64,000 nucleotides of DNA from Schmidtea nova (taxonomy: Eukaryota), in NCBI GenBank assembly GCA_044892505.1, contig CM097883.1, positions 164,920,001-164,984,000 of the forward strand. Direction: 5' to 3'. The notes under the pieces are model-generated. The model ran no database searches and was not told the origin of the DNA. It saw nothing but the letters and a program-made list of their open reading frames with translations. Below, one piece after another: positions 2,179 to 37,105 of the stretch. The translations under genes were made by a program, and so were the position numbers. Positions within the stretch are counted from its first letter, which is position 1. Every line of letters begins with the position of its first letter.

Positions 2179-4039
2179 CTAGCTCTACCCGTTCACGTGT
2201 TGCTGTGTTATGCATCTAATTAAAAATCTGAACAAAAAGGCAGTTTTGTAACATCAAACAAAATTAGAATATTTAAATAATCATTAATTTAAATTCTTTT
2301 TAAACATAATGGGGACTAAAATTGGTGTCAGAAATTAAAGAACTTACCCGATACGCGTGGCCCCTTAAGGGAACCACGCTCTGCTATCAATAGTTTTGAC
2401 AATAGGTCCAGATCTCACAGAATCCATGGTTTCTGATGAGAATTTCAATTCGGACAAGATTTTCAAAAGCATTCGAAACCTATTTTTTTATAATTTACCA
2501 ACTTTAATTTCAAAGAATCAAAATTACATACCCAAAATTAATTTTTTAAAGATTTAAATTGAAAATTAATTGCGAATAATTTCTTCCACTTAGACTAGAA
2601 TTTTCAAAATTTATATCATTGTTACTTCAATATAAATTATATATATTTATTGTAGTGCTTGTAAATATAAAACATTTTTTGTTTTCCTATCTGGTGCAAG
2701 AACAAATAAATTTAATGGTTTTCCAACTCGTGAACACCCAACGTACAGCTGTCCATGTGAAAAGCATGGATTTATCAAATTTAATCCATATATTTGCAAT
2801 GATTGTCCCTGTGCTTTGTTAATTGTCATTGCAAAGTCTAGTCGCAAAGAAAGCTGTAGACATTTGAATTCAAGTGGAGTATCTGTTGGTATTATAGGAA
2901 TGCGTTGTAGTAGTACATGTTGCCCTTGGTGTTTTCAATTTAAAATGGTTGCCTCAATTATGTTATTCATTAATTTTTTTACTGATAGCCTAGTCCCATT
3001 GCATAGTCGCAATGGATTTATATTTCGTAGAAGGATGATTGGAGAACCAATTTTCAAAGATAAAATATGCGGTACTATTCCTGGTAGATCTAATGAATTT
3101 AAAAATTCTATTGGATAATTAACTGATTCATCGTGATTGACAACACTATCTATGGATTTATATGTTGTTTCTTCACCAGGTATTTCATTTTGAGTTATAC
3201 AGTTCTGCGATAAATTTGGAAAAACTGGTAGAGTTTGTCGAAAATCACCAGCTAGCAAAATGAGTGCACCACCAAAGAGCTGCTCATTTCCTCTCAAATC
3301 TTTTAATGTGCGATTGAGTGCTTCCAATGATTTCTTGTGTGCCATGGTGCATTCATCCCATATTATAAGCTGACATGATCTTAGTACTTTTCCTATCCCG
3401 GAATATTTGCTAATATTAATTGTTGGAGTTTCAATTGCCTGCATATTTAATGGAAATTTCAATGCTGAATGTGCTGTTCGACCACCGTCCAAAAGAGTTG
3501 CTGCAATACCAGATGATGATATAGCAAGGGCAATATTATTTTGTGATCTTATAGTTTTGCCAGAATAATTGAAATAAGAAAAGTTTTGCCAGTGCCTCCT
3601 GGTGCATCTAAGAAATATAAACCGTAATTCTTGTTAGATGCTGCATTTATAATTGTGTCATATGCTGTTCGTTGTTCTAATACCAATTTCGGCAGATTAA
3701 TTCGAACAAATGTTTGTAATTCATTAACATCGAAGTGCGTTTCTCGTTGTATATCACGATCGAAAATGTCATTACCAGATCTATTTGGAGCTATCATTCC
3801 CAATCCTGTCAGTGATTTGCTGGCTATCGTCAAACATACATCCTCAATTAAAATCAATGCTTCATTGTATATATTTGCTTTAAATTGAATGTTGGGATTA
3901 GCATTTATTCTACGCATGCGATGTAAAATATCTTCACTCATATAGTCTTAATATTATTCCAAAATATCCTTTGGATTAGCCGGAAAACATGTAGTTAATA
4001 TGATGAAAAATAGTGTACGTATCTGCTGTGGTTGAGCAG
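2179..4039 (-). mobile_element. Helitron 3' part: 3' CTAG terminus and broken PIF1-family helicase
   Basis: Walker [12 protein letters not shown] (3549-3941), IIWDE and LLAGDFRQ (2935-3492), FAMTINKAQGQSL and HGQLYVGCSRV (2647-2847). The minus strand ends ..CACGTGAACGGGTAGAGCTAG|T at 2179. Multiple frameshifts and internal deletions. Confidence 0.92.
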
Positions 4040-4416
4040 TGCTGGTGCGTTGGTTAAATGGACAACTGAGATCCTTTGGATTTTATACGTTAGGGTGATC
4101 TCGTATCCCCGCTGACACCCATGATGTATCCCTAACTACTCATCATGTTGGTGCTGTGTCAACGTTGTGAAATGACAAGGCAGGTGAGCAACCTTGCGGC
4201 TACTATTCCCTTGTTTATTCACGGGTCCACCACTACCGATAGAAGGTTTACGTGGATTTATTTCGGTCCTTTTATGCGCTCCTTTGACTTTTCGCTAATA
4301 ACTTAATTCGGGATACCTTTAGCACAAAAATGAAATGGGTTCGAGTGACATTATTAATGTTTTCTCAGTCATTCTACAGACAATCAAATTAATTTAACTC
4401 ATTTCAAATACATTTA

Positions 4417-4977
4417 TTAATCGCTCAATAACATTGACGGATTGATCACATCTAATAGTTGTTGTTCAGTCAGTCCACTCAGTAAATCGACCTCGCTACC
4501 GAGTCTCTCTGCGTAAGCCCTTTGTTCCCGACGTCTTTTTGCTCCTAGACGGTTTCGGAACTTCGTTCTTTTTGAGCCTTCCAGCGGCGTCAATATTACT
4601 GGGGTGGGCGTCGTAGTATCTTGTTCTGTCTCAGTCTGGGTACTGGTCGTCATGGGTAGGGTTTCGACCCAGCGGTTGAACGTACTCGCCCGGATGAGAG
4701 GGCGTAATTGTTGCGTTATAAATTCCTGAGTAGAGGCTTTTAAGTAGTTATGGAGCTCTAACCTCACCGCTGCGGTCTCCCTGGATTGTTCCTCGGCGAT
4801 ACGCTCCGCTCTATACCTTGCCTGTAGGATAGATTTCACTTGTTCAGGGTTGAACCATGTGGTTTTAACACGTTGATGCACCTCGCCTAATTGGCGTAAT
4901 CGACTCTCCAACACCTTTGCGCGAGCTTTATATTCTTTGGCTTCTTTTCTGAAGTCACGCGGGGTCTTATTATTCAT
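4417..4977 (-). CDS. Family E ORF2: orphan coiled-coil protein with basic C-terminal tail (186 aa, intact)
   Basis: Homologous to ORFs at 11.7, 26.8, 28.0 and 38.0 kb (W/YFxPxxxK..LELxNxxK..FIxxQLxxLIR). Tail RNRLGAKRRREQR. TTTTAG directly precedes the ATG and AATAAA overlaps the stop. Confidence 0.7.
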   Translation of the reverse strand: MNNKTPRDFRKEAKEYKARAKVLESRLRQLGEVHQRVKTTWFNPEQVKSILQARYRAERIAEEQSRETAAVRLELHNYLKASTQEFITQQLRPLIRASTFNRWVETLPMTTSTQTETEQDTTTPTPVILTPLEGSKRTKFRNRLGAKRRREQRAYAERLGSEVDLLSGLTEQQLLDVINPSMLLSD

Positions 4978-5192
4978 CTAAAAATTAAAGAAGGGTTTTA
5001 AATTCGTAGTTTGGATTTGGGTTTGTTACGGGTCGATATTCCCCTTTTATTTCCCTTAGTTGTGGTTCTTGCCATTTCTAACTTTACCCTGCTCTCGTAT
5101 ACACCACTCAGTGTCACTCTTTCCTTTCTCATACATCATTCACACTTGCACGTACATTACGAAACTGATTCATACAACTAAGAGAAATTAGA

Positions 5193-5789
5193 TTATTTAT
5201 TTAGATGAAAATACACATGTTCAGCGCAAGTTCGACAGCTCCATTCATGGTTCTTGCATGAATTCCCTGAGATCCTGGTCGAATTGTCTATCCTCCCGCC
5301 CGGGGGGCTCCAGCATAATTGATCGTCGCATGCGAAGACCTCCCACAGTCTCGCTGGATCTCCGTTGGATTGAGTGTCCATGGCTATATTTCCGGGAGCG
5401 TGTAAGTATGGTTTTCTCTCTCCGGTAGTTCGGTTCCTGGGTTGATCAAGTAGGAGATAACCGAGGCGATAGAAGTCGGTTCCCCGTACGGATGGGTCGC
5501 TGATTATCCATTTTGGTCGCTTCGTCTCATCTTCGAATTGGATGAACCATCGGGACTTTGTTTGTTTCGGACAGGTTACTGGTGCCTGCCATTTCGGGTC
5601 GCCTTCACAGCGTATTCGCCCTCGGAAAGAGGTTATGGCCGCTCGGGCTGCGGGATCCACGTTTCTGCGCATCCATGTCCTGAGGCATCGCTCCGCCGCC
5701 CGTTGGATAGCATTCGGAGGAGGTGTAGCGTCCATGGCTTGCCACTGTTGATTCCGGTTGCCTTGTGAGCGAAGTCTTTGGCATTTCAT
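5193..5789 (-). CDS. Family E1 upstream orphan ORF (198 aa, intact) with Cys/His-rich C-terminus
   Basis: Long open frame in AT-rich DNA. TTCAG-AAA-ATG start context, AATAAA at the stop, C-terminal ..CKNHEWSCRTCAEH. Confidence 0.55.
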   Translation of the reverse strand: MKCQRLRSQGNRNQQWQAMDATPPPNAIQRAAERCLRTWMRRNVDPAARAAITSFRGRIRCEGDPKWQAPVTCPKQTKSRWFIQFEDETKRPKWIISDPSVRGTDFYRLGYLLLDQPRNRTTGERKPYLHAPGNIAMDTQSNGDPARLWEVFACDDQLCWSPPGGRIDNSTRISGNSCKNHEWSCRTCAEHVYFHLNK

Positions 5790-7133
5790 TTTCTGAAGAC
5801 GAAGGGGTAGAGATTTAATTATTAGTTGAAATCGTCAGTCAAGCATGCATTCCTTTATCAGTCTGGCATCATTCGTACATCATACGTAGAAAACATATTC
5901 AACTCACGAATTTATTACTTGATTATTTTCAGACATCCTTGACATTCAAGAAGCGTGATCTGTTTACTATATTCTTGTTACATCGAGTGTGAATTTATGT
6001 CATCATTGGTACGTTGTAGTAGTTGGCGTTCATGTTGCTGATATGGTTACTACCACACGCATTTTATGTTCTGACAATGATCTATCGCCGTGGGCCGATC
6101 GTCATACTGCTTACCACTCAGACTCATTATTATACACATTTTATCGATTATGATTATCGCTGCTACGTGAATGGTTATCTCTGCCATACCTTGAAACCTA
6201 TCTTTTCACCAGGTCGTGTATATCTGATTCAGAATAGTTTAATCATGGTGCCTATTAGGTCAAGAGGTTTCGCTGGTTTATTCTGGAGTGGAACTACTGG
6301 GTATTTGTTGGGTTACCGGGTTTCACTGCCTGTTTCTTTTACTATAACCTCGACTGTAATATGGATAGTCTCTCCCTCTGATCTCGGTTTATATCAAGCA
6401 TAGTCATGGTATATGGTTATCTATATGACTGGGATTGTCCATAGGTCCTTTACACAGTGCACTATGTGCACCCTTCCCCCTCCGCATCAGTTTAATACAT
6501 TACACTCTCGCCGCATCGGCACCTCATATGAGAATATGTTGTGCCGAAAGGCCGAGTATCCTGTCAGATCGTGAGATCTTCGGGACAAAACTTATTGATT
6601 TTTAGATATGAGGATTTAAAAGTATTAAAACAAACATCAACAATACCTTTTATTTCGTTATTGAGTTTCGTCTACAACTTTCAAATTGTCAGTTCACAAG
6701 AAATACTTGGTAAAATGACCGGTGAAAAGGGTGACCAATACTGATTTCGCTTCAGTATTTTTACTAATTTGGTGTTGTTGGTCGGCCAATCAGCATCGAT
6801 TATGTGTGTGTTTATTGCCAATTATTCCTGTTTGTCAATTTTCTCCGTGCAATTCAATTCAGTGAGTTGCTTGTTTATTCATGCGGTAATTTTCTTTTGT
6901 TATGATTTATTTTATTTTAGGTCTTCGGTGATGTCCGCCCACGTGCTGTCATCTTTTCAGATTTATCTGATTCGCATGGGTGAGTTTTTATTGTTATTGC
7001 TGTTTTGATTAATGCTTTATTACTTTTAGATTCTACCGCTTATTGGTAATTTATTTTGTTGTTGGTTTTTGTAGATTTATTTTATTGATTTCTTATTACT
7101 TTTCAGATGATGACTGATTTGCCTGGCCCAACA

Positions 7134-8336
7134 GCAGTATTAGAGATATCAGCGAGTGAAATATCTCAATGAGCATCTTTTTCTAAGAAATTTAATTTCT
7201 GGCAAGCCTCACGAAATGTAATACACACATGGCCTTTGACTGTTTTTAATTCTTGGAAAGATGTTGGTCCACGATCATTGATTAATAATAATCTTAGGTA
7301 AAAGCATTCTGCGTTATCTGGATGTACAGTGAACTGACGACACAATGCATCAGTGGAATATAAATTTAAGTGTTCTTGTACTGCTTTACCGTGTTTACAA
7401 CGCTGAAATTTTCTTGTTGATGCATTCCACGTAAAATAAGTTGGTATTTCAGAGTACAATAGTGTCCTTGCAAAGATATAATTTCTACATAATGTAAAAA
7501 CTTCAGTTAATGTTAGTGGTGGTGACATTGCTCTTGCACGTACATTTTCTGATGTAAAATACACACGCTGTCCATTTTCAAGATGTACTACTAAATGAAC
7601 AACCGTTGGATATCGCTTATGAATGGAAAATGACAAAATACGACATACAACCTCATTGCTACTTATGTATCGTTCCATTTGATATTGGGTGACTTCATCG
7701 TTAGATGCAGTTGTATTTTTCACTCCAAACACTGCCATATCGATTCGTTTGTTCGCATATTTACAAATATATTTTATAGCTTTCATTGAATTGCAGTGTG
7801 CGTTTTATGTTTTTAGTAGTAATGGAAAATATGGTATTACCCAACGATTATCATCATCAATAGTATTGTTGAGTACTTTTAGTTTAATGGATTTTCCACC
7901 ATCTTCGGTAGATCGTCGTCGATAGAGTGGATATTCATCATTGCCTGTAATAGTTTCAGGAAGTAAGTAACCACTTTGTGCACTTTCCATCTGACATGCA
8001 TGGTGAATTATTATTTAGTTAGCCACATGGACCATGAATCATAGTTTTTGAGACAATATCGTGCAAGTCTTTATCAATTTCAATGTCTGGTATTTCTGCA
8101 GAGATGATTTCATCAAATCTGTTTGGTGTTATCATTGCATCTTGTGCATATTCATGCATGTGTCTTGGACTGCCTGTAAATGTGGATGGTAAAATGACCA
8201 TTTTTGCCAATTCACTGAGATTGCCATCATTTACAACTGCATCACGTAAATGGATATACTCTTCAGAACGCAATTTGACTTGATTTAGTTGTATGTAGAG
8301 GAGTCTTTCACTTTCTATTTATGCATGTCAACATTG
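7134..8336 (-). mobile_element. Helitron Rep region (continuation of the 2179-4039 element), internally deleted and 5'-truncated
   Basis: IKYICKY (Rep motif 3 region), RVYFT, ECFYLRLLL, EEYIHLRDA, ILPSTFTGSPRHM. The segment carrying the HUH motif appears missing after QDAM. Truncated at 8337 by a TGTTGGG end. Confidence 0.9.
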
Positions 8337-10809: not shown

Positions 10810-11620
10810 TATAAAATAATACTATAAAATTTCTGATGCAGGTAATTATAAATTTTGGTAAATCTTATAAAATAGAAATACCACTATAAAATTTTTAATT
10901 CAGTTATTTCTAGAATTTTGTAAATGTAAAGGTTAGTCGAAAAAATTTAAAAATTAATTTACATATGCAACCTTTCTGTAAATTCCTCACCCAAAAATAT
11001 CCTAAAACAATCAATAAAATAATTTTCGCATTTAGTCACACCCGTATCATTTGTTGGACGCATTGCTTTTTCAAATTTAGACTAAAATATCTCCCTTCTA
11101 CTTTTCGTTCGCTTGTCTTTTACCTTTTCTCCGTTTCCTTTCTAGGGTCGCAATACGCACATAAAAAGTATATTGTGTATGTACCCGTGAACTTCCTTAT
11201 TAATCCACGTTGGTAATGTACATAACAGCCGATCGCAAGCCAGCAGGTGAGCTCCTTTACAAGAACTACTCCTGACTTGTCGCATCGTTCGGGTTCTATT
11301 TGACCGATAGAAGGTCTTATTTCTCTTATTCCCTCACCCAGTCGCAGGTCTCTCCTTTGGTTGATAATATTCTTTCCATAATTTAATGACTATTGGTTAG
11401 ATTTCAGTTTTTAATATTTATCCCACAGAAGTCACATTTTATTAAACATCAAAACTACACTCATCCTTTCAAAACGTTTCATTAATTTCACTAAATGAAT
11501 ACAGTTTTATTTGTTTGCTTTAAAATCCATCGGTGGCTTCTATTACTCTCCCTTACTTTGATTCTGATTTTTGGTTACTTTTCCTAACTTCAGGGCGAGT
11601 TTCTCTTTCAACTGTTTTAT

Positions 11621-11968
11621 TCACTGCGCGTGTGACTTTCGGCGATTCCTGACTTTTGACTTCTCTGTTGTCGTCGTCGTGTTGATTGGTTGCCTTTCTA
11701 CCTCCTGTTCCGGAAACTACTTCTCCAATGTTACCGGACGAATTAAATCGGCGAGTTGCGTTACTATGAATCTCTGAGTGATCATTTTCCTACAGTTGTT
11801 GATCTTTATTCGGCTAGCTTCTAACTCATTCTTCAGATCCTCGATCGTCTGGGAGGCCCTCTGTAGCTTTTCCTTGACGACCTTCATTGCCGCGGGTGTG
11901 GAATAACTACTTTCCATCTCGAGAATTCGCCGTTTTAATTTTCCACTTATTTCTTTCTCAGTAGCCAT
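11621..11968 (-). pseudogene. Family E ORF2 copy (frameshifted near 11720)
   Basis: LEASRIKINNCRKMITQRFIVTQLADLIRPVT; the basic tail KSKVRNRRKSH is in another frame. Confidence 0.7.
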
Positions 11969-12290
11969 GAATTATCTTAATTTTAGTAGGGTTAATCTCT
12001 CACACACCTTTCCTAGCATATTCAATTAATTTATGGGGAAATTTCCCTCCCATCAGGCATCTCGATTCCCTCTTACTAAATCCTTACTCGTGACTACTCT
12101 CCTCAGGTATCCTACTCTATTTAGTCATGACCCAGTTATTTATTTAAAGTTTCCTCTCATTCACATCAACTCACTCTATCATGGGTAATGAATCACTGTC
12201 GTAATATTTTACTCATTTTATTTCACAAAACTAAGACCATTAACGAAAAAAGAGCAATTAATATTTTCACTACATCAAATTACACTGGGA

Positions 12291-12751
12291 TTAACACAGG
12301 TCGATATATTCCATACAATCGTCCTCACTGTTGAGCTCGCATACGCCTGACGGACTGTAGGGAGTCTCGGTTGACATTTCCGTTGGGGACGTGACATCGT
12401 CCCCGTGTAGAAAATGTTGAATCGTCCTGGAATCTCAGTGGGAGATTTGACGAAATATTTGGACAGATCCGAGGGGTAGATTCGATCAACGTCAATTGGC
12501 TAGGCTGAACTGCCATGCCAGGTGATAATATCAGCGCTGTCTCGATGCAGGTTGAATGGCGGAATGATCCTTTTGTCCACGAAAAAAATCTGCTGTTCCT
12601 CGACGATCTGCCTCGCCAGATCGGTCGGAATGTTTTTTAACGGAAAAGCCCATACGAGGAAGTTTTCCCTGACTTCTGGGTCCTGATATTCGGATCTTTT
12701 TTGGTTAGCATCGTCTGTTCCGCCTTGTATATGCAAGCAGATTTTCTCCAT
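12291..12751 (-). pseudogene. Family E ORF1 copy (in-frame TAG at a Trp position, plus a frameshift)
   Basis: RENFLVWAFPLK..FNLHRDSADIITWHGSSA*PIDVD..PTEIPGRFNIFYTGT..EDDCMEYIDLC matches 38661-39160. Confidence 0.7.
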
Positions 12752-14223
12752 GATCTATCTAGATGCTGATTTAAAACACCGAACTAATTTATAGATAGTT
12801 ATCGAGAACACTAACTCTGTGTCAATTTATATATGTCCCGTTACCCGGTATTGAGGGTTGTAACTATTAATCGATGGAGTTCACTCCCTCGGGTTCTCTA
12901 TGTTCCTTTCTAGTCTGTTCTCTGATTGGGGGCATCACAATACTAAGTATTTACTGTAATTTGCATCATCTAATTAATTGGGTTAACTTCACTGAGTTAT
13001 TAGTTTCAGACAGCATCGGGAATTTCGGTAAATTTAATTGGGTTTGGCGTTGGTGTCAAGTGAAGTCAATTTAATTTACATTATTCTAAAATTTCATTTA
13101 ACGTGATTTTAGCTACGAGAGTCAATGAAAATTTTTGTGAAGTGGTACAATCACTTGAAATTACTCCTCAGCGCTACTTCACTCTGAGTGGTAATGGATT
13201 CTCCTGCAATCGTCTAAGATTTTTCCAATCGAATACATTCTGACGCATACTCACTAATAGATTGGCAGATGTTAAATTTCCCCTTCAAATTCTCAAGTGG
13301 GTGGAATTCTAGTTGCATTAGTTTAATTCCCTTATCTCCTCGTAATTTCTCTCGTCTACATACTGATGGTTGGAATTTTACACGCTTTCAACGAGTTGTA
13401 CTTGAAATATCTCAATTGCCCTCTCTATCAATTTCAGCACTGTTAGTTGAATTTTACTGGATATTAGTCGGTCGGTGTTATAATTTCTATCGTGAATATG
13501 GCGAATTTAGGTTGGGAATAGGTGGATAAAATTATTATGTTTAGCTGCTAGCGTCTCTAGAATCAGACGGTACGCATTCCCTGAATTGTTACTATGGAAC
13601 TCATCATTTTGGGTATTTACTAAGCAGAATATCGGGTTACCTTTTAAAACTGGGTTTCACTTTGATACAAAAACTACGATCGTCCGATCTCTGCAGCGAT
13701 CATTTCGCCCCTTTATCATACATATTTGTCACTGGCATTAAACTGTTCATTTATCTGGATATTGAAATTAAACTTTTGGAACTCAATGACACTCGGTTTC
13801 GGCATAACTCACTACTTCCTATTTAGGAAATCATGTCCTAACATAAAAAGGCCTTCTACAGAGATATCTATCTCTGCCCCGTGCCGAAGCTCGAAACTGA
13901 GAGAGACCTCCCTGGAAAGACCACAATCTCTTGATCGCCTGGACTCTCGCATTATCTATAGTTAAAATGTAGAGAACGAAGGCATGTTTATCATAGAAAA
14001 ATGTATTTCATTTACAATGCACAAACACTTATAAATTGTTCTGTGAAAACTTGATTAGTGCGTCGTCCTCCGAGTGTTGTGATGAAATCGATGTGAAATG
14101 CGTGCTGGATGCGAAAAGTTCAATGTTGTGGCTATGAATGACCTATAACTATTGGTATAACTGACCTAATTTTGGTATAAAATGACACTAGACGTTGGTA
14201 CAAAATGACATTAATTTGACTGA

Positions 14224-14270
14224 CCTGAGCGCTTCCTTATATAGTAAAATCGACGCTCAGGCAGCCAATC
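14224..14270 (-). promoter_or_regulatory. Putative Pol II promoter: CCAAT box plus TATA (CTATATAAGG on minus) inside an 8-bp inverted repeat
   Basis: CCTGAGCG-cttccttatatagtaaaatcga-CGCTCAGG-cagCCAATcag; homologues at 31611, 34500 and 40508. Confidence 0.6.
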
Positions 14271-16491
14271 AGAATCGAGTAACCTTTTTATTGGTTAATG
14301 GCTCGATTTTTCTATTAATTTATTTTATTATCCTAGGTTTTATTCATTATTATTTTATTTTTTTTCTTATTAATTTCGTAATTATTCTTTTATTCTTTTT
14401 ATTTCCTAATTTCTGCTCAAATTTCGCATCTTTGTCATTTTTTTCTCGCTTTTTCATTTTTATTTTAGTTTTAATTGTGCTTTTCTCTTGTTAATGCTCA
14501 CTTCTTAATTAATTAATTATTATTTTATATTCCTCATTTACTTTTATCCTTTCCTGATTAATTATTTAATTTTCACTATTATTCGTTCTTGCACTAACCC
14601 AACACATTCAATAACCTTTTCTATATATAATAACACATAAAGAATTCACTTATTCCATAATGCATACACCACACCGGTTCACTCTAGTATTCTTTAGTAC
14701 CACACACCCAGAAATTCACACGAGACATTTATTCAAATACAGCTGTCTGCATTATACATCCAGGAAATTCACACGGACACTCACACCATCTTAGTATCAC
14801 CGAATCACTTATTTCAATCCAACATACAACCACACACAGTCACAACAATACAAAAGAAAAAGAAAATTACAATAATATATACATACACACCCATTTGCAA
14901 CCGCCACAACGATAGTTTTTGTCGAATCCATAAAAGTATATGAACGTACAACTCGGAATTGTTACACCTCATCTCATCAACCTATCTTAAATCATAACAT
15001 CCTATATTAGAATCTAATTCAAAACACATCATTTGCACTCAGATTATTACTTTAGAGTTTACCATTTCGCTAGGGAAATGTGTATACTTATTTTGATTTA
15101 CGGCTACAACATCTCCTGAATCTACGTCGTTCCACTTACAAATACATAACACCCAATAATAAACATTCATTGCACTACTCAACTCTAGCGGAAATCTCTA
15201 ACTTAACAACAAACCATTAGAAACCCCAGACATCTCGAAAAATCCAATTTTTCAGACAACATATACTTATATCCATTAACTTATTTTACTAATGTATCCC
15301 ATACCTATTAGTTAATTTTTTCTTGGAGGATGTCACATGGCATACCCCATAAAATGTTAGACTATTAACAACTTTATTTAACAACAAAAATTACATGAAG
15401 CTCTTATAAAATTTACAATACCGAAAAATTTACATAAAATTAAATAAATTTCTAACAAATTACTAACTAATCGTATAAAAGGTCCAACAGAAGAATAGAA
15501 ATAAATCCAACGAGATACAATGAAGGAAATTTCATAATAAATTCATAGGTAAAATCAAGAGATTTGCTTTGTGAAATATTGTAACAATTTGAGCCCTAAA
15601 AAGGTCGGAGTTATATCATTAAATTACGAAATACCAAAGTTACTCAATTTGAATTTCACTATTATATTTAGTGGAAAATTGATATTGTATGCTAAAGATT
15701 GAAGCGGCGATTGATACTCACCTGGTAGATTAACGACTTCCTAGTTTTCCTTTAAGTTAGCGTCTCAGGAAATCTGAATCACTAAGAGGAGAAAACAATA
15801 ATTGAAAATACCAAAATTTGAATATGACTTACCAGCTTGAAAATCAAAATTGAGGGAAATCTCCTTCTAAAATTAGATCCCTAAAATCGATGATTAGAAT
15901 ATAGAATTCAAAACTCCATAATATAACTAACCAATCAGAATCCGGAATTTTTTGCAGTTCGCCCATATAGATTTTTTGAATTTTTCATTTTCTATAATTG
16001 AACTTTACAATACAATATCGAAGGTAAAATATCAATATTATTCGAAAATTTCGAATAAATTTCTAAATTAAATAAATGCAAATTGGTAGAAACGACGTCG
16101 TTACCCGTTGCTAGGGCCGCAGTAGAATTTTTCAAAAACTAAAATATGAATTTCTAATAAAATCACAAATAATTTTATAAAGCAAGATAGACACTAGGTA
16201 TAGGGGTCTAAAATCTTTAGCATGAATTTTCTTAATAAAAGGAAATATATAGAAGTCGAAAAATCCTAGAATATTTTTTTTGTCAAAAATGATGATAAAA
16301 TTATAAAAATTGCAATAAAAATGACATTAAATTTATAACAAAAGAGAGACATTTGGACTAGTATACAAGCGAGTATTGTAACTAGATTTTATTTAGATCG
16401 AAATTTTCGATAGATAAATAAGGGGAGTTAGCGAAGGAATAGCTCATTTCCCAGACTGTTCTCGTAATGTTTTTCCGAATTGAGGTGCGAC

Positions 16492-17261: not shown

Positions 17262-17777
17262 ATGAACATCGAGCAAAAGATAGAAGAATTCTTTCGGTTA
17301 TCCCTCGAAAACGTGAAGCATAATCGAAAAATAGACAATTGCTTTGCCGAGCTGGAATCAAGGAAGACATCAAATTTGGATGCTCTACAAATAATGATTT
17401 CCCGAATGGAGAAATTCCGAGCTCGTTGTCGAAAAATGGAAACGACATGGTCTGACAAGAATACTGTCGATAAATTGAAAAAGCAAAATCAAATGCTTCT
17501 GCAGCAGGCCGCCGAAGACGCGTTGACGTTGCGCGCGTGCAAAGTGTCTATGCGGGAACAGGAGCTTCTGATCGAGAAGTTAAGAGCAGATAGTGGCATC
17601 ATTGCAGCCGTACTGCCGAAAATACAGCAACCCTCTCAAGAATTGTTTCCTGTCAGAGTCGAGGAGGAAACCCAGAAGCCTTTGGCTTCTGAAAAGCCTA
17701 AACGTCAGAAACCTAGTAAAGGGGTTATAGCGCGAAGAAGACGTCGTCAGGAAGCTCGCCTATTAGGTCAATTATGA
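17262..17777 (+). CDS. Divergent family E ORF2-like coiled-coil protein with Arg-rich tail (copy E4, plus orientation)
   Basis: TTTTTAG-AA-ATG start, METTWS (compare KTTWF), tail KGVIARRRRRQEAR, followed ~360 bp later by the family motif. Confidence 0.55.
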   Translation: MNIEQKIEEFFRLSLENVKHNRKIDNCFAELESRKTSNLDALQIMISRMEKFRARCRKMETTWSDKNTVDKLKKQNQMLLQQAAEDALTLRACKVSMREQELLIEKLRADSGIIAAVLPKIQQPSQELFPVRVEEETQKPLASEKPKRQKPSKGVIARRRRRQEARLLGQL

Positions 17778-18228
17778 AAGGAGTCTACCGAACTTTTTGA
17801 CTTGACACTAATTTGATCTGACTATTATCCACTCTAGTAAATCTGACTAACTGTTGCGAAAAAGTGATTTTGGTCATTAATGTTTTTATTGTGATATATA
17901 TTGGTATTTGGTGTGTATTTCCTTGTAATCATATGAAACTTTTGATTTGAGTTTTAAATTGAATTATTGTTTGACTGGAATGCGTAATGAGAATACTTGG
18001 TGAAAACGAATAACGATCGGTAGGAAAAAACCAATTGAGATAGAATAATAAATTCTAGCTGATGAAACCTTATTTCGCTAATTTCCCATAAATATCGGTA
18101 GTTGAATTATAGAAGAAGGCACAAAAATGGGCAGTAGACCCTCTATCGGTAGCCCTTGGATCCAGGAGATATTCGGTCAATCATAGTTTCGAATTTTCGA
18201 CGCTCACAGATTGTTCAACAAAATCAGC

Positions 18229-19288
18229 ATGGGACGACTTGAGGAGGCAATAAAAGCGTCACAAGAAGATACAATTCCTTCGCTTTCCAACTTCTTAAAT
18301 CGAAATTTCTTACAATGGAATCAGAATTACGCTCACTTGCAGTTTTTCAAAACATTCTCTAGATTCCTTGTCGGTCAAGAACAGCAGGGCACAAATGGAT
18401 ATGAACATATCCAGTGCTATTGGGAAGTAATCTTTATTATTATTAATTTATTAAATAAATAATAATTTGGATTATAGGTATATAAAAACATGTCAGTTTT
18501 TGCCTTTATGGCGAAAAATGGATTACGCTTTGTACAAGAGGTTGCCGGCGTTGACCGAAGACAGGCGATCGAATACGCTATAAAGGCCGATACGAGAGTC
18601 GCCGACGGAATCCAGGTTCGTATAGGAAAACCCAGTAAGTACAATGCAGATAATCAAAAACTTTGTAATTTTAAACGAGCACTGGATGCTAAAAATCTAT
18701 CAGAAGCAATAAACATTATCAAATCATCTGAGTCTTCATTTTCTTCAAAGAGAAAAAGTATTGTCGAGTCGCTAATAAACAATTTTGGAGAGGAAACTTT
18801 GCCTAATTTTTGGCTCTAGCTTCTTAATTAACTTAATTAATGTTTACGATTGGAAATCACATGTATTTATCGGAGAAAGTGGTATCAGTAAGACGAATTT
18901 TGCTTTAGCTCACTTCAAGCACCCTGTGCATTTGAAACATCTTCAGAGTCTAAATAAAATATCGGGGAATGCTGATCAATGCGATGGTTTGGTATTCGAT
19001 GATTTGTATTTTAACAAATCAAGGGTTGACGAATTTTTGTGTTTAATATACTGCGCGTATGAAAACGCGGTAAATATTAAATATAGCGTAACAACAGTTC
19101 CGAAAGGCATTCCTCGTATATTTTGTATCAACGATATCGATATGTTCTACCCAGAAACATGTACTAGTAGTATAATGGAATCGATTCCGCGAAGAATAAA
19201 GATACATAAATTTAAAGGAAATATATTTAAAACTTATATAGGTGAAAAAGTAACAAATGATATATTTGATTTTTTTATATTATTTTAG
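18229..19288 (+). pseudogene. rep: Endogenous CRESS-DNA-virus-type Rep (HUH endonuclease plus SF3 helicase) with one intron and one frameshift
   Basis: Motif II GQEQQGTNGYEHIQCY, motif III QAIEYAIK, Walker A GESGISKT, Walker B GLVFDD, motif C RIFCIN. One extra T in the T run at ~18806-18810 breaks the frame. Confidence 0.85.
18427..18477 (+). other. Putative 51-nt GT-AG intron in rep
   Basis: GTAATC..TTATAG, extremely AT-rich, contains an in-frame stop. Removal fuses ..HIQCYWE to VYKNMSVF.. in frame. Confidence 0.75.
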
Positions 19289-19459: not shown

Positions 19460-20229
19460 TATTAATAAATTTAATACATAACACAACCAGCATGGCACTA
19501 ATATAATTAACAACAAACGCCAATCCAAATATATATTTTGCACAATATATTTCGAGAACTTAATTCTCTTCATCAGGTGCTACCCAATCTTACATCGAAA
19601 TATAAATCACATAAATCGATTTATTCGAACAAATTAGTATGTTTATAATTAGTGTGTTATAATTAGTGTGTTTGCCTCATTTTTTGCGGTTTAAGTAAAT
19701 TAACTGATGTGGTTGTTGGTGGTGTTTATTTTCTTCTTTTGATTTGTGTTCTATACTCGTTTAATTTTTCAAATGTCATGGGCGTAATGCCACATACTTT
19801 GGACAAGACTGACCGTCTTTTCTGTACTCGAGTTTTAGAACATTTTCAATTGGGGATTATGGATTTCGTTTTCAATCATTCTGTTGTTTATAAATATGAA
19901 AATATTTATAATATATTCTTAAAAAAAATATTTTTTTGTATAAAAATAAAAGAATATTATATTTTTAAGATTGAATTATTTAAATTTAAAAATTTTTAAT
20001 CGATATAAGTTTTTTGACTATAATAGAATTTAAAATATATATTTTATTTTAAAAATTAATACTAATTTGTTCGAATAAATCGATTTATGTGATTTATATT
20101 TCGATGTAAGATTGGGTAGCACCTGATGAAGAGAATTAAGTTCTCGAAATATATTGTGCAAAATATATATTTGGATTGGCGTTTGTTGTTAATTATATTA
20201 GTGCCATGCTGGTTGTGTTATGTATTAAA
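19460..20229. repeat. Long inverted repeat (~180-bp arms at 19460-19640 and 20059-20229, ~420-bp spacer); partial third copy at ~20317-20355
   Basis: The arms are reverse complements, e.g. CATCAGGTGCTACCCAATCTTACATCG / CGATGTAAGATTGGGTAGCACCTGATG. Confidence 0.95.
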
Positions 20230-20399: not shown

Positions 20400-20940
20400 C
20401 TTAACATCGGTTAAAATTTTAACACTTTTGAATTCATCAATGTTATTATTAAACACATAAGGATTTTCGCATACAACATATCAACTTCGATTTCTTAACG
20501 CTAATTGATCCTCGGTTGCGTACTTCCATATGGGATGATTTTTAGATATAATGCATGGCACTGATGGAAGGCTTGTCTTTGAATCGTTTTTTCTAGAGAC
20601 ACGTAAAAAGATATTTCCTTCACACATGAGTTTGATTAAATTCACATTTTTAATGCCACAGTAGATCTCTTCTCCAATAATCATCTGCTTGCCGACACAG
20701 TCATCAAAACAAAATTCAGATTGACATTGGGCTCCTGTGAAGAAACCATGTGTCCAGTTATCACGACATATCGCTGTGAATAGAGATTTACCAACATTAC
20801 TGCAGCCTTCTAAAATAATTGTCTTTGTCTTTCCAGTTTGAGATATGAGTATCGTAAATATCCCAATAACGCGACGAAGAAACTCCTTATCTTTTTCTTA
20901 ATATAATGCACTATGGCTAGACAATATTGAATTAATTTGT
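20400..20940 (-). pseudogene. NS1: Endogenous parvovirus/densovirus-like NS1 SF3 helicase fragment
   Basis: Frame reads SQTGKTKTIILEGCSNVGKSLF (Walker A) ..EFCFDDCVGKQMIIGEE (Walker B; compare the parvoviral FPFNDCxxKxxIWWEE) ..LPSVPCIISKN (motif C). Internal stops. Confidence 0.8.
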
Positions 20941-21354
20941 CTATTGTGATCGTCATTAAAATAAAAATTATTATTGCGAATAAAATCTTCCATAAAGTTT
21001 GAGAGTTCATTATAAATCAACAAATCGTTCATCAATAATTGTTTTATGACTCATATTTTTTAATCCACAGTAACCAGTTGATTTACTTCACTATCCCACT
21101 TAACAGTTACTTGATACTGCGCTTATATAAATGATATGAGTAAATCCCATGACATCATTTTGTTCGCGTCGTGCTTTTTAAGAGACTTGGGGGAGGGGGG
21201 ATAGAGGGGACCCCTGTATATTGACCCACCCATTTGTTGCATTACCAACGTTACATTGTGACGGGCAACAAGATGGTTAATTCTAATATTTTATGTGCTG
21301 AGTTGATGATGTGAGCCATAGCAACGTCAAGGTCATATTGACTATCAACAACCC

Positions 21355-23223: not shown

Positions 23224-25347
23224 CAATGTTGTCCAACCTTTTTTGAGCCAAGGCACCCGGTAAAATTAGAAATTTTAACGGCATACCATTTTTTTAATTT
23301 ACTGCATTTTTCGTTGAAATACGTCAATATATTCTGAAAATAATAATACGAAAAAATAATATTAAGTGTTAGAATGTTAATATAACAATATCTAAATGGG
23401 AAGATTGAGGTTGGTGGTTCGAACAAATAAGTTCCAACCGAGCTTTAATCTTCGACAAACAAACTCTTAATTCCTTATCAATATTAACCATGCGCTTCTT
23501 TCATTCGATTGTTGTAAGAGCAGAAAATCCTAGTTCGCAAAGATATAAAGAACCAAATGGAAGCAATGTTTCGATAATTTTTAAACTCAAATCTGGATAT
23601 TCATCAAAAACAAAAATCCAGAAATGGGATAATTCTTTCTCGAAAAATAATCTCTTCAAATTAATATCGTTTTTTTTATCAAAAAGATTTTCCAGTTCAG
23701 TGCCCGTCAAAATTGTTTCAGATGCTTGAACAAATGGATTGATTACCGAAGAAACTTTGCTTATATCGAGATCTCGGAAATATTGCCTGAAAGTCGTTGC
23801 GAGATTTTTTAGTGTAGTAATTACGTCAGAGATGATTTAATATTTTTCTTTTGACGAATCGAGATCAGGGAACCAACTCAGCTGTCAAAAGTTTTTGTTT
23901 TTCTTAAATTGATTTTAATTTGCAAGAAATTGTCAAAATATTTTCGCTTGATCTTTGAATACTGACATTAAGTATATTCAGCTTTTCAAAAATGTCATTC
24001 AAAAAAATTAGAACCACCATTTATCTTTCTTAAGAACTTCAAATGTCGTTTTATGAGAGTTAAAGAAAGTTAAAATTTCTTTCAATGTGATGAATCTTGC
24101 AAGAACTTTTCCCTTAGGTAGCCAGCGATTCTACGTTGAATAAAGAATGAATTTAAAGCTTGAGTCCATGGAATCACACAATCTTTCAAATATTCTCGAT
24201 CGCTGAGCACTCGATTTTATGTAAATGACGATCTTGACAACATCATTCATTGTGTTTTTAATATTATCAGGCAAATTTTTCGACATCAACATTTCCCAGT
24301 GTATCATGCAATGATTTTCTTTGATAGCTGGGTTTTGCTTAAGAACATAAGCTGCAAATCCTTTTTATTACCTTGCATCAAGTGGGCACCATCCATACAA
24401 ATAATAATGACAATCCATTTATTGCAACTTTTTCGTTTACTAATTCAAAAATATTTTTTTCCCCAGTAGTTCTCTGCTTTAAGTCATCACAAAAAAGTAT
24501 TCCTCAATTATTTTTTAATCTTTTATGATTCTCAAAAAGAGACAGTTGGGACTTATTGCTATTGTCTGTGCTCTCATCAATTTGGAGTGCCCATATTTTA
24601 TCATATCCTTCTGAAGTTTCAGAAAAATGATTTTTCAGCTGTTCATGAATGCTTGCAGACTTATCACAGACTCTACGAGATATTGTATGATGTGGGAGTG
24701 TAATCCTTTTTAAAATTTTCTACCTCTTCATTATCAGCAGCTATTGTTAGTGCAGTAAGATTTATTGATACAGCATCAAGGTGTGGTTTCTTTTTAACAA
24801 GCATTTGTGCGATTTTGTGGCTGGTCATTAGAGTTTTATCGGATATTCTTGTGAATGCTTTAAATTTCTTGGTCTGGTTCAAGAAATTATCTTTCAATCT
24901 CGTAAAATAAATTTTTGGTTTATCTTTTAATTGTGGATATTGATGTTGAAAATTTCGTTCAAGTTTGCTCGGAACCGTGGACTCGTTAGCAAATAGTAGA
25001 GCACACAATGCACATTTGAATTGAATAATCTTTTTCTGATGTTAAAAAGCCAAATTTTTACACTTTTTGTCGTACATACGCTTTTTTATTTCCTTTGTAA
25101 TTCCTGCTTCTTTGTTTTTATTAGGAATCTCTTCATCATAGAACTAAAAATAATATTTATGAGCTAATAACTTATATAAAACAATACTTAAGTTATTGAA
25201 GGATCTATATTAAATTTACACAAGAAAAATTCTGTGACCGTTTAATTTTAATACATAAATAATTTATCCTTATCTGCGATTATGAAAACACAGGTATTTT
25301 TTATCATTTTATGAAATGTTTCATGGCACACCAGTTGTACAACACTG
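23224..25347 (-). mobile_element. hAT (Buster/Charlie-like) DNA transposon, 2124 bp, decayed transposase
   Basis: TIRs CAATGTTGTCCAAC / GTTGTACAACACTG, perfect 8-bp TSD CATTATTC. ORF pieces ANESTVPSKLERN and LLPFGSLYLCELGFS (hAT dimerisation domain). Confidence 0.95.
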
Positions 25348-25770: not shown

Positions 25771-26291
25771 TGAAATATGTTTTTCTAAAATTAAGGCCCT
25801 AAATGATACCTATCTAGATTTTTTTTTTCACACCGGAAAATGGTAGTATGCCAATTTTCAGAAAAAATTATAGTGACGTTTTCGAGAAAAATTTACAGAT
25901 AAATAAATAAATATACAATTATTGTTTATTTAATAAGATAAGATACAAATTACAAATTGTCGAAAATTCGTGTACTAGAAAAAATAATGATAATATTGTT
26001 CAGCTTTCTGGTTAAAATGATAAAAATTTCTAAAATAGAAAAAAATAAATCAAAGGTGAAAAAAATGAAATATGTCAATAATCTTTCAATTACTTGTTTT
26101 TGTTAATTAAAATTCTTATCATAATTTAAAATTTATCCCCAAGTATTATTTAAATTCCTATATTTTATTAAAATCTTTTTGAAATTTTATTAAAATTGAT
26201 ACAAGAACTGAAGCTGACCAAAGATCAAAATGAATTGCTAGTGTTCGGTTGCGTGCTTGAATAATTTTGTATTTTTTTATTTTTTAATTAT

Positions 26292-27245
26292 CTAGGGTCG
26301 CATGCAACACAAAAATCTTAATGTCCGTAAGTAACCATTTGTACTTATGTTGGTTCTGCACACGACAGGCGAATGTTGATCGACAGATGAGCTTCTCTAG
26401 AAAAACTACTCCCGATTCTACCATTCTCGTGGGTTCCCTAATGACCGATAGAAGGTCTTCACACTTTATTTCACCTCATCCTTTCACAGGTCACTTATTT
26501 ATGGTGCATTCATCTTGTTCTATGGCCTACAGCTTATATATGCGTTGTCAAACGTGTCATATATGATTATATTAATTTTTATTTAATTACGATTAACACA
26601 AAATGAAAAGAAATCAACACAAAAAAATAAATTTAATTAGCAATCACTAAATTACAACACTAAAATTGTTATTGTACACTCTTGGATTCATTCATTCTAG
26701 CAATCAATTATTTTTTCTTCCTTTGTCTTTTCTGGGAGCTGATTCGTTTCCTTTTCTTAATTTAAGTTTCCGTTTCTTCCGATGTCTCGTTTGAATTTGA
26801 CTTTTGACTGATAGTTGGGTACCATTTAGCTAGAGTAATGGGCAGGATCAGTTCTTTTAGGTCATCCGCCACGAACCACTGTGTGATTTAATCCTTACAG
26901 TTATGCAGTTCTACTCTCGTGACTTCCAACTCTAGTTGCCAGTACTCGTTAACTTGTTGTTCTCGAGCCAACTTATACAATGATCTTTTTCATGATTGCG
27001 GTCGGAAAATAGATGCTCTCTAATTTGATTATTACGGCGCTTCTGGGATGTTCTGATTCAAGTCGGATTCATATACTCCCCCACCTATCTTCCAAAATTA
27101 GACTTTTGATATGGTGCCTCTATATTGGATAATATCGAGTCCGGGGATACCTCTTGCGGACTCGGCGAAATACTTTGGTGTATCCCACGTTTACTCATAA
27201 TCCACGTCGATAGGCCACTCCTGTCCTCCATGCCATCCTGACTAT
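26292..27245 (-). mobile_element. Family E copy E5, distal part (motif, decayed ORF2, 3' half of ORF1)
   Basis: Motif 26292-26457; LEVTRVELHNCKD*ITQWFVADDLKELILPIT; WHGGQEWPIDVDYE at ~27195-27235. Confidence 0.7.
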
Positions 27246-30009
27246 TATTGTGGTCCTGGATGGGTTAAAACAAAAGATAAACGCTCTAGGGATGACTCCA
27301 TCCAAGACCAAACATAAAATGCTTTCGCGACACACAAGCACCCTCGACTATTTCCCTGGATAATCGAGTTGGAAATGTGCAAGGTGTTTGAACAATGATG
27401 GGCAGGTGAGCTCTATTACTAGAACTACTCCCCATTTAAGTTCACGGGTCCATTGCTGTCGATAGAAGGACTTACGCTTTACTTTCATTTTTCTTCCTCT
27501 GAATTCATTATCTTTCATTTTAATTTTCCTGCCCCCTTCTTAACAACATCAACAGATAATTCGGATAATTGTTTATATATCTGAGCTTTAGATTCCTAAT
27601 GTTTGTCATTTATCGAGTTGTGTTAGCATTTTGTCAATATAATTTGTATTTGATTAAATTAAATTTTTAATAAATACTTTATTTTACCTACTTTACAAAA
27701 TATAAGCACAACAAAAAAATTATAACCAAACTATAAATTTTTACGAAACGATAAACTTTAGTTAACTAAATTTAACAAAATTTATTCAAAAAATTAAAAA
27801 AAACCGTCATCAAATGTAACAAAGTTTGTCGATAGATCGATTTCAGGAAGATCATCGTTATGCTGGATCATTTGCATCGCAAATTGTTTCTTCCACCGTC
27901 GTTGTCTTGCCCCCATCTTGTTCTTCTTTTTCTTTTTAATTTCGATTGTTGATGAGCTTTTCGGTACGATTGGATTTTCCATTTCCCGAACCTGCGATGG
28001 TCCTTCAGTATTTGTTCCCCCTGGACCATCCTGCTTTCTCTTCCGACCAATGTTGATAGGTAATTGGCCGGATTAACTGTTTTAACTCGCGATCTATGAA
28101 TGATGCTGTGACCGCCTTGAGGCATTTTCTTAACTCGATCTTTGTTGCCTCGAGTTCAGTTCGATATTCTTCTCCCGCTCTCTGAGATCGTTGATTTTTC
28201 ATGATTTGTATCTTCATTTGTTCAGGGCTGAACCAACTAGTTCGAAAATGAGAAATTGTGGCTTCAGCTGTTTTCAGTTTTTCGGTGGTTCTGCCAATTT
28301 CTTTCTCAAGGCTGCGAACGATTCGCCAAGCCTTGTCTAATTCGGTTTGTGGATTCGTTGGATTACTTGACATTTTCTGAAATCAATTAGTGTCATTAAT
28401 TATTGATGGATAGATTTCGATGGATTAGTATTATATTGATAGATTCTGTTTCATAATTTCCTCTGAAGATCTTTGAGGTTTATTTAACCATTATATTACA
28501 ACTACGGAGTGAAGTAAAATACATTCTATATCTCAACACTGTCGCTATGTACAGCGATCAGATAAATTCATTTATAATGTTTATTTGTACCTGTGCTATC
28601 TACAGCAATTAGGTTGATAATTTATTTACAAAGTTTTTAAGATATTACTGCCCTATATACAGGGATCAGTCTAGCAAATTAAATGTATCATATTTAAATT
28701 ATTCCGTCGGCTACTCATGAACCTTTCAGTTATTTGCGCTTGATCGGGTATCCATTGTAATAAGAAGCCTACACTGATTTGTTGTTACGCCGACCTGATG
28801 AAATCAAATGCAAAATCAAGCTCAATGTAACCACTGAGTTGGAAGTATCGATCATTATGGTCAATTTGTGCAGAATTCATCTATCATAAACTATCCTGCT
28901 ACGGTAGGAAAAATCAATGTGTCTTAAACCTATTCATTACACTGTAGCGATGTCGTATCGACGGAACTTCAAAACCATCTAATGTTATTCATATGGATAA
29001 GTGTCTGTGAAATAATGATCTCTTGGTTTCTAAAATGTGTATTTCATTCCGGAAAGTTTCGGAACATTTATTGAGCCTATATTGCTATGACCACCAAAAA
29101 TTTCTGACTCTCTCGTGTGCTTAGCCAATCTTCTGGATGTCCAATCTCGAACACGCTAGCCTTGTCTGCATTTCAATTTTATATTACAATCGATAGTTTA
29201 AGAAAATCACATTTGTGTGAAGCGGTTAATCAAATTGATGTTCAATAATTTAATAATAAAATAATAATTCTAACCGGCTGACTATACTGACCAGCAATAA
29301 TCATAAATTTCAATTATCAAAAATAAAATCTCCTACCCTCTTCATGACACTTAATACCATGAAGACGGCCTAACTGTGCGAAGTAGTTAAATCTACTCGG
29401 CGCAGTCTGCCTCCTTCCACCGATTTCACGGTGGACAGGAGCCCCCTTTAATCTTTAAACATAATATCAAATTAATTCAATAAATTTGCCTCCTTCCACC
29501 GATTACACACATAAATATTTAATGCAAAACAGAAAATCGTGATAACATATTACAAATAAACAAAATCAGCCATACCTGCTAGCTATTTTCAAATTTCTGA
29601 TTGAAATGTGTTTCAGACAAAAATTGTAAAAACATTAAAATCATTTGATTCTGCATCAGTATTTATACTGATCAGATCAACCGGTTGGCCAATCAGCGTC
29701 AAGCTGATGGTCGTTATAACAATTTATTTATTTTTGTTTTAATCAATCATTATTAAAATTTAATTAATTATTTATTGTAATTGATAAACATATATAATAT
29801 ATATTTTAATCATTAAATCTCATTTATTATCTTTTTACATCTTAATTTTGTTTTCTTATAATTTTATAATATCATTTATTTCTTTTTCTATTACTTTTAA
29901 TTCCTTTTAATGGAATTTCTTTCAAATACATTAATTTACTTTATTCGTATTTATTTTCTCATTATTATTATTTATATATTCAAATGTTGGCCAAATGGTG
30001 GACCCAACA
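27246..30009 (-). mobile_element. Family E copy E6 nested in E5
   Basis: Motif 27366-27471, ORF2 27794-28373, CCAAT at ~29690, ends CCCAACA at 30009. The left junction is approximate. Confidence 0.65.
27794..28373 (-). pseudogene. Family E ORF2 copy (one frameshift near 28000)
   Basis: TSWFSPEQMK..LEATKIELRKCLKAVTASFIDRELKQLIRPIT; tail KKKKKNKMGARQRRWKK; TTTCAG-AAA-ATG start. Confidence 0.7.
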
Positions 30010-32019: not shown

Positions 32020-32199
32020 CTAGTATCATAATTAAAAGAGAAGATTTGTTACAAAAATGTGTAAAAATATCTTTTTATCTTATGCGTTCACAAAATTGAT
32101 GGGTTGTTGATAAACAAAATAACCTTGACTGTTTTTCTATAGTCTCTCATATTTCAACAACCAAACTCACAAATATTAATTAACCATATTGTTGCCAGC

Positions 32200-36397: not shown

Positions 36398-37105
36398 CAG
36401 CGCCGGTTCGAGATAATTATACGCCCCAGGCGAAAATTATAAAAAGCGCCCTATTTTAAAAATTAGGTACAAAAATTATGATAAAATAAAAAAGATTAAC
36501 AAAAAACAATCTATTTATTACTTCATTTCATTTTTTTCGATTGATTTACATATATATTTATAAAAAAAACAGAATTTATAAGAATGATTTTTTCCTGGCT
36601 TTCATGTCTGCAAATTTTTCTATTGCTGCCTCCAAATTTAGGTTTGCTACAACATTATTTTCAATTGAAATAATGGCCAAATTATTCAACCTATCTTCCG
36701 TCATAGTAGATCGCAAATACGTTTTTATTAGTTTTAATTTACTAAAACTTCTTTCACCACTCGCAACACTAACAGGAATTGTTACGAGGATTCGTAAAGC
36801 CACCCATAGATTTGGTACTGTACTTTTCAAATTATTATCATTGATAAATTGTAAACATATTAAAGGATCTTTAACATCATCTGGTACCAATTGCTTCAAT
36901 GTTTCGATTTCCTCGCACAATTCTAATCCATTTATATCACTATATTTTTTTTAAACGGTTGGTTTCATAGATAAATTTCAAAATATAAAGTTTTGGAGGC
37001 TTATTTTATAATTTTCTTTGATTGTTTATAATAAATTTTGGCGCCCTCTAAAAAAAGGCGCCCTATGGCTATGGCCTAGGTCGCCTGGCCCTTGGGCCGG
37101 GCCTG
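36398..37105 (-). mobile_element. Non-autonomous hAT deletion derivative (708 bp)
   Basis: Perfect 8-bp TSD AACAGGAC, ends CAGCGCCGG / CCGGGCCTG. ORF 36576-36920 has PVSVASGERSFSKLKLIKTYLRSTM (hAT dimerisation domain). Confidence 0.95.

Follow-up and report, generated by a model that had tools for sequence, protein, structure and literature searches.

Planarians harbor giant Ty3/Gypsy retrotransposons, Burro1-4 and GYPSM1, which according to the available part of the published account are present in hundreds of copies and possess an interior of more than 20 kb, a polyprotein of ~5,000 aa (reported frames of 4,873 and 5,140 aa) with a CCHC Gag and, in frame between gag and pol, a mononegavirus-type fusion protein, as well as ankyrin repeats, MATH/TRAF and RING domains and accessory open reading frames (ORFs) (PMC6431247). 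Burro1 is reported to help planarian stem cells (cited in PMC13465017, in the part available). The stretch of DNA analysed here (the window) comprises 64,000 nucleotides of Schmidtea nova (GenBank assembly GCA_044892505.1, contig CM097883.1, positions 164,920,001 to 164,984,000 of the forward strand) and contains a 3,094-bp insert, E1, at window positions 4040–7133. E1 is almost certainly a solo long terminal repeat (LTR) of a giant Gypsy element, the sense of which corresponds to the minus strand and the full-length copies of which share the features just listed. The explanation that we consider likely as a whole is that E1 derives from a Burro-like element of 26–30 kb, that its two selected ORFs are likely spliced and that a terminal RNA likely controls the fate of the transcript.

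Genes associated with LTRs are known from retroviruses: sag of mouse mammary tumour virus (MMTV), HIV nef and the foamy-virus accessory genes are ORFs that overlap an LTR or lie inside it and are reached by splicing. They are situated in U3 (the unique 3' region) or extend into it, i.e. upstream of the transcription start, whereas in E1 the predicted start precedes two ORFs, both of them complete, so that a solo LTR would keep promoter, exons and 3' end. The analogy with MMTV sag drawn in an initial annotation of this DNA, which was made from the sequence alone, thus fits loosely: the genes are in the LTR, but would lie downstream of the start and not in U3. Another comparison is that with regulators of the Rev, Rex and Rec type. 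RxRE and RcRE are structured RNAs in the LTR, like the terminal RNA of E1, and ORF2 of E1 has the coiled coil and the basic patch expected of such a regulator. Cer1 of C. elegans is likewise an LTR element and makes an additional small protein, CERV, from a spliced mRNA (PMC10309623, part available), splicing being predicted in our case. ORF2 differs from CERV, Rev, Rex and Rec in that no similarity to them in sequence or fold was found and in being placed wholly inside the LTR; RNA binding and export would be its functions by analogy.

The plant elements Ogre, Grande and Retand resemble the present one in their LTRs of several kb and their conserved extra ORFs of unknown function, and differ from it in that these ORFs are internal, mostly between pol and the 3' LTR (available parts of PMC6431247 and PMC7264820). 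As to Burro1-4 and GYPSM1, the available part of PMC6431247 is silent on ORFs, splice signals or RNA structure within the LTR. Our literature search found no description of ORFs or of a structured RNA in the LTRs of Burro; its scope did not extend to Grohme 2018 and Lee 2026, which may annotate LTR ORFs. The parent element is of a described kind, and the inner anatomy of its LTR (two selected genes behind acceptors and an RNA without an Rfam family) was not found described.

The insert E1 and its parent element

E1 begins with TGCTGG and finishes with CCCAACA, the outermost bases being TG..CA, and GCAG flanks it on both sides (4036–4039 and 7134–7137). It splits a Helitron coding run. The left flank (2935–4035, minus strand) is a PIF1 helicase remnant, found on the scan. 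The right flank (7138–7804, minus strand), where the reading runs on across the E1 site, we take to be a Rep/Hel remnant by its motifs, Pfam having given no match for this piece. The Helitron flanks are joined without E1 in public contigs of three of four runs. The GCAG duplication and the cross-site Helitron reading confirm the initial proposal that E1 was mobilised into a Helitron codon run with a 4-bp target-site duplication. It was also correctly noted for E1 that no transposase, reverse transcriptase or integrase is encoded, since a Pfam scan finds none inside it. The ends of E1 form only a 6–7-bp imperfect inverted repeat, and long terminal inverted repeats of Ginger type are absent.

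A genome search with E1 gave 2,992 candidates, of which 40 were scored. Both ends are in view at 19 of the best 30 loci: 15 of these, E1 included, have exact 4-bp duplications, two have duplications with one mismatch, and the remaining two are junctions with a purine tract, i.e. non-host sequence beyond the LTR end. Such a junction of LTR end and purine tract occurs at 134 places in the genome (reversed control, 0). Seven of these places were read further, six for 30 kb and one for 20 kb, and all six of the former have a second LTR 22.6–23.6 kb away. The paired LTRs are 98.7–99.9% identical (as obtained for five of the six pairs). A primer site located 6 nt past the 5' LTR matches 19 nt at the 3' end of this genome's own tRNA-Pro, exactly in five of the six elements and with a single mismatch in the other one; 10 nt before the 3' LTR there is a short purine tract. 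An LTR 22-mer has 882 exact copies in the genome, and the first 100 listed include 17 same-strand pairs 20–30 kb apart. A further 34 LTRs were fetched, comprising 16 solos with a duplication, four at a purine tract (these had been picked from pairs), one at a primer site and 13 truncated or unclear. E1 itself shares 89% identity along its whole extent with a copy flanked by the purine tract and ~70% at both ends with young paired LTRs.

As a rule, solo LTRs arise when the two LTRs of an inserted element recombine. A full element would thus have inserted into the Helitron, and LTR-LTR recombination would have left one LTR together with the duplication. The initial annotation had offered two readings, namely very long solo LTRs with genes of their own, or non-autonomous elements mobilised by an integrase. 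The latter, in which the 3-kb units are independent and are moved by a Ginger-like integrase-type transposase, agrees with the fact that most copies are solitary and have TG..CA ends and 4-bp duplications; however, a surplus of solo LTRs is also what recombination predicts, and these sequences also occur as near-identical pairs on either side of gag-env-pol, accompanied by a primer site and a purine tract, besides forming the pairs among the listed 22-mer matches. It is largely refuted already and superfluous given the paired copies, and we consider it very improbable. The search for E1-family pairs that flank gag/pol with primer site and purine tract, suggested at the same time, supports the LTR.

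Some details of these loci can be mentioned. The tRNA-Pro(TGG) genes, the same tRNA that matches the primer site, form a 308-bp tandem array from G000:C1:459609706 onward (L071–L073), and the pattern of the tRNA-Pro 3' arm has 899 matches genome-wide. In two of the six full-length elements (L057 and L060) the outer end of the 3' LTR is 3 nt shorter than in its partner and the duplication fits the inner CA, which suggests an alternative integrase cut. At L003, L018, L051, L057 and L066 the insertion sites are runs of (TAA)n or (TA)n. The duplication calls at these loci are therefore weaker; the sites may reflect a target preference.

The internal region of the parent (22.6–23.6 kb, of a total measured at 26–29.5 kb) contains a single frame of ~5,090 codons, broken at at least one place in each of the six copies. 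The Pfam domains follow in the order CCHC knuckles, Monjiviricetes fusion glycoprotein, protease, reverse transcriptase, RNase H, integrase and ankyrin. The fusion glycoprotein (PF24664, E 1.7e-71) is in frame between gag and pol, upstream of the protease. A separate RING ORF is situated upstream of the frame, and a TRAF/MATH ORF with two further ORFs downstream. The accessory ORFs before the 3' LTR are exemplified by L069:3846-4373 (~176 aa, with a signal-peptide-like start) and L069:4444-5658 (a coiled coil of ~400 aa); they are conserved, and a second family has both. An insect element of the Woot/Osvaldo type was our first idea and was dropped after the internal region had been read.

This layout is the one published for Burro/GYPSM1 (PMC6431247), so the initial label of an unclassified family is not supported: at the level of architecture it matches a described transposable-element family. 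On its layout, the parent is very likely kin to Burro. A planarian host fits this layout and the 68% AT content. The TRAF domain is here encoded by a separate ORF downstream of the polyprotein and is placed inside it or upstream of it in the described Burro elements (PMC6431247, part available).

Predicted promoter and splice signals, and the ORFs of the LTR

All features of this section are on the minus strand of E1. The predicted U3 (6743–7133), as delimited by promoter motifs, is AT-rich, measures ~390 nt and ends at the initiator. It contains an inverted CCAAT box (6786–6791), conserved in 40 of 42 full-length LTRs, and the TATA position (6756–6763), which is TATA-like in 38 of the 42 and degenerate in E1. 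The sequence TCAGT (6740–6744), present in 39 of 42, is initiator-like, with a predicted start at 6742. The start would be followed by a non-coding first exon (6647–6742) that ends at an AAAG/GTA donor, found in 37 of 42. In these LTRs CCAAT, TATA and initiator are at fixed spacing and the donor is 74–128 nt beyond the initiator.

ORF1 (5193–5789, 198 aa) codes for an alpha/beta orphan domain and has an acceptor AG at 5793–5794. In E1 the frame of the family is lost near 5304, hence the C-terminus differs from that of the family. ORF2 (4417–4977, 186 aa) is directly preceded by its acceptor AG (4978–4979) and comprises a coiled coil, an STQT motif, a patch rich in Arg and Lys and a hydrophobic tail. 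Among 69 loci given, 66 were anchored, and a frame of at least 150 codons is open in 41 of them for ORF1 and in 47 for ORF2. A pyrimidine tract with YAG stands 0–12 nt before the start codon in 29/41 ORF1 and 37/47 ORF2 copies, as compared to ~4.5% for other ATGs, a background that is too low because the acceptor test admitted every ATG in frame up to codon 40.

Pairwise ratios of nonsynonymous to synonymous substitution (dN/dS), taken by class of synonymous distance, are 0.51 (two pairs), 0.32, 0.41, 0.29, 0.25 and 0.18 for ORF1 and 0.27, 0.23, 0.16, 0.11 and 0.07 for ORF2. The shifted frames used as a control give 0.94–2.41. The exception is the antisense frame with the same third positions, at 0.39 and 0.24. 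Judged from their sequences, ORF1 and ORF2 are in all probability protein-coding and under purifying selection. ORF2 remains recognisable in three lineages at 26–30% identity, and its plan across lineages is a coiled coil, a W/Y-F-x-P turn, a second coiled coil, IRxxT-x3-W, a linker and the basic patch. STQT is found in 41/47 ORF2 copies of E1's family and in few copies elsewhere, and the other families do retain the basic patch. We take STQT to resemble LC8-binding motifs; modelling an ORF2 peptide with yeast dynein light chain was uninformative (score 0.03).

The predicted structure of ORF2 consists of helices only, with a pLDDT (predicted local distance difference test) of 76.8 and a pTM (predicted template modeling score) of 0.32, and that of ORF1 is an alpha/beta domain with a pLDDT of 61.6. 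For the ORF1 model, neither PDB nor BFVD yields a Foldseek match at E<=0.001 (the best Z is 3.9), which is not proof of a new fold, and BFVD yields none for the ORF2 model. No sequence homologue of either protein was found at E<=0.001 in a set of 5.8 billion sequences, as searched at near lengths only, and nothing significant is found in Pfam, PDB sequences or the ESM Atlas, where the best scores are 0.76 and 0.78. The one ORF match in a representative protein set was rejected as a spurious repeat protein.

Transcription would begin ~390 nt into the LTR, and the exon of ~95 nt would be spliced to ORF1 or ORF2. With a start at 6742 and splicing to either ORF, both genes lie downstream of the start, i.e. 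they would belong to an R-U5 part (the repeat and unique 5' regions) of ~2.7 kb. The spliced mRNAs could end within the LTR, and read-through would yield the genomic RNA. On the conserved signals it is fairly likely that the ORFs are spliced from the 5' promoter. The contigs of the four public runs contain no splice joints at the predicted sites; their library type is unrecorded and they cover the Helitron flanks too. The contig ends of these runs resemble, as we take it, Tn5 adapters. The contig depth has a peak at 3986–4347, which is inseparable from copy number. AATAAA at 4214–4219 was not adopted as a poly(A) signal because it is absent in the other families.

The terminal RNA and its possible role

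Near the 3' end of the LTR a conserved structured RNA of ~165 nt is predicted (4085–4253, minus strand). Its fold comprises a hairpin whose loop measures 7 nt, a long stem that is interrupted by a conserved internal loop and in many cases capped by GNRA, and another stem that carries a CCAAC loop and usually has a U-rich run beyond it. Thirteen copies that had not been chosen by a motif in that block are 97–98% identical within 4108–4258 and 71–85% identical just upstream. An alignment of 14 sequences, which represent about seven lineages and are on average 60% identical, yields a consensus fold of 33 pairs, and 25 of these are changed on both sides; none of 500 shuffles reaches this number, and controls slid along the alignment give 5–11. 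It counts against this result that the structure was derived from the same alignment in which the covariation was counted; therefore the test outside the alignment is the better one. There the RNA model recovers 11 of 12 loci of a family that had no part in its construction (10 at E<1e-4 and one at 0.07), and on 14 internal or flanking stretches it has a match only in an LTR. The terminal RNA is common to E1's family and the other, deeply diverged LTR families of the window, and is kept in LTRs without ORF1 and ORF2. The structure is very probably real, as judged by base-pair covariation. Rfam gives no match to it: region 4000–7200 has only a weak match to a small Cajal body-specific RNA elsewhere (E 0.037), and region 26200–38000 none up to E 2. 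Hairpin, hepatitis-delta-virus-like, twister-sister and hammerhead ribozymes and RNA polymerase III boxes, compared by eye, showed partial likenesses and none was accepted.

The conserved block also bears on where transcription starts. The same solo LTR and genes could be read as having the ORFs in a long U3, expressed mainly from the 3' LTR in the manner of MMTV sag, nef or the foamy-virus accessory genes, with the genomic RNA made from a second promoter just before the terminal block and with a short R. A very long R is unusual in general, a TATA-like stretch lies ~30 nt before the block in E1 (4286–4295), and the summed contig depth peaks over the block. However, the depth can follow from copy number (882 exact 22-mer copies), base pairing accounts for the conservation of the block, and the set of CCAAT, TATA, initiator and donor at the 5' end is present in nearly all LTRs, including those of other families and the short LTRs lacking the ORFs. 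We therefore regard a start at the terminal block as unlikely and retain the start at 6742.

In three of the six full-length elements the LTRs are 1.56 kb long and lack ORF1 and ORF2, these elements being equally young. Clean intron loss as the origin of such LTRs was rejected, since the ORFs are replaced by ~415 other bases. The young full-length elements with 1.56-kb LTRs at L051–L053 and L057–L062 keep the promoter and the terminal RNA block. As such elements exist, the ORFs are not needed in cis, and ORF1 and ORF2 would act in trans or be accessory.

ORF2 combines a basic patch of RNA-binding type with a helix of oligomerisation type, and a Rev/CERV-like RNA-binding regulator is therefore taken as the lead. 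ORF2 would oligomerise via its coiled coil and bind the terminal RNA via the basic patch, which would promote export or read-through of the unspliced genomic RNA. This binding, proposed by analogy with Rev and CERV, is the least certain step, and we put it forward tentatively. We put at slightly short of an even chance the alternative that the terminal RNA works on its own, for instance as a self-cleaving ribozyme, a packaging signal or an element for 3'-end formation or stability, and that ORF1 and ORF2 act on the host rather than on this RNA, e.g. through dynein light-chain binding or control of immunity or cell death. The presence of the RNA in LTRs without either ORF is consistent with this, although complementation in trans could serve the ORF-less elements. 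The unpaired bases that never vary, and the GNRA-type loops seen in several families, resemble a tertiary fold; no Rfam family matches. STQT, which resembles LC8-binding motifs, is common in E1's family, but it is absent from most copies of other families, which keep the basic patch. The TRAF, RING and ankyrin genes of the parent also fit a function directed at the host.

The explanation favored here, a Burro-like solo LTR with two spliced genes and an RNA that governs RNA fate, has firm points in the paired LTRs, primer site, purine tract, gag-env-pol frame, target duplications, codon-level constraint and compensatory base changes. Several further points weigh against it. The start site, the splices and the 3' end are all predictions. 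The dN/dS pairs are non-independent and saturated in 559/820 and 801/1,081 cases. ORF1 and ORF2 are missing from half of the full-length elements, and other families have retained neither STQT nor the hydrophobic tail in ORF2. The Burro assignment rests on architecture, and BIR, BCL2 and dUTPase, which are reported for Burro, gave no Pfam match up to E 0.5 in pieces of two copies. Some of the published Burro domain calls used HHpred, which is more sensitive than a Pfam scan. Finally, E1 itself may be inactive, as it has a degenerate TATA and a frameshift close to the C-terminus of ORF1.

It is possible, if rather doubtful, that elements of Burro type are complex retroviruses of flatworms, with an LTR that by itself forms a complete two-gene transcription unit and an R-U5 of ~2.7 kb that would supply a Rev-like regulator, an orphan-fold protein and an undescribed RNA (response element or ribozyme) common to all lineages. 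The question bears on how a retroelement RNA of 25–30 kb avoids splicing and early polyadenylation and is exported. Two handles on it are offered, a candidate regulator under strong purifying selection and an RNA structure supported by covariation and without an Rfam family. If the proposal is true, solo LTRs, usually deemed promoter leftovers, keep whole protein-coding cassettes in hundreds of copies and would be expressed mini-genes able to supply regulators in trans.

Other elements in the window

The claim that further diverged copies in the window share the layout of E1 holds: three more have both ends and a 4-bp duplication, and several are partial. The earlier labels E3–E8 were matched to them by position. 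The ORF2 profile matches five places in the window, the RNA model eight at E<1e-4 and two more weakly, and the CCAAT-TATA pattern occurs at five places besides E1. A solo LTR of a second family (11052–14604, minus strand) has the duplication CATT, an ORF2 remnant and the RNA motif. A solo LTR with the duplication CTAG (26242–32019, minus strand) is interrupted by a nested solo LTR of a third family (27246–30009, minus strand; duplication CTAT). A decayed LTR (33312–34960, minus strand; right end not defined) keeps the RNA motif and CCAAT-TATA, and a second-family LTR (37468–40642, minus strand) is truncated on its right side. More decayed LTRs are marked by two other RNA-motif remnants, at 21139–21299 (plus strand) and 32161–32326 (minus strand). 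The LTR flanked by a purine tract that the initial annotation mentions was not located in the window.

A relative of the 27246 element adjoins the same purine tract and the TRAF and accessory genes (29–53% amino-acid identity), and two relatives of the 37468 element adjoin the tRNA-Pro primer site. The window therefore holds LTRs of several old Burro-like lineages. No matching polyprotein was found in 28 kb beside one primer-flanked copy of the second family.

A partial LTR of a further family (17262–18261, plus strand) has a 171-aa ORF (17262–17777) behind an acceptor and a truncated RNA motif. This ORF has no detectable sequence similarity to ORF2 and belongs to a high-copy family (5,071 candidates, all 150 scored ones matching) with the same RNA motif downstream.

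The region 41276–61357 is a near-perfect tandem array of ~5 copies of a ~4.12-kb unit, 99.2–99.5% identical. Each unit contains a 137-aa RING-finger ORF (PF13639) and adjoining it a fragment which, from its motifs, we assume to be integrase-like. A parvovirus NS1-like fragment is found at 20481–20897 (minus strand; PF01057, E 1.5e-9). Near it are an ORF pair at 18490–19288 (plus strand) without a Pfam match, in which we presume a P-loop helicase-like motif, and a 171-bp perfect inverted repeat at 19470–20229; the fragment and its neighbors are possibly the remains of an endogenous single-stranded DNA virus. The segments 23501–25041 and 36576–36950 are presumably remnants of hAT-like transposases, as judged by their motifs.

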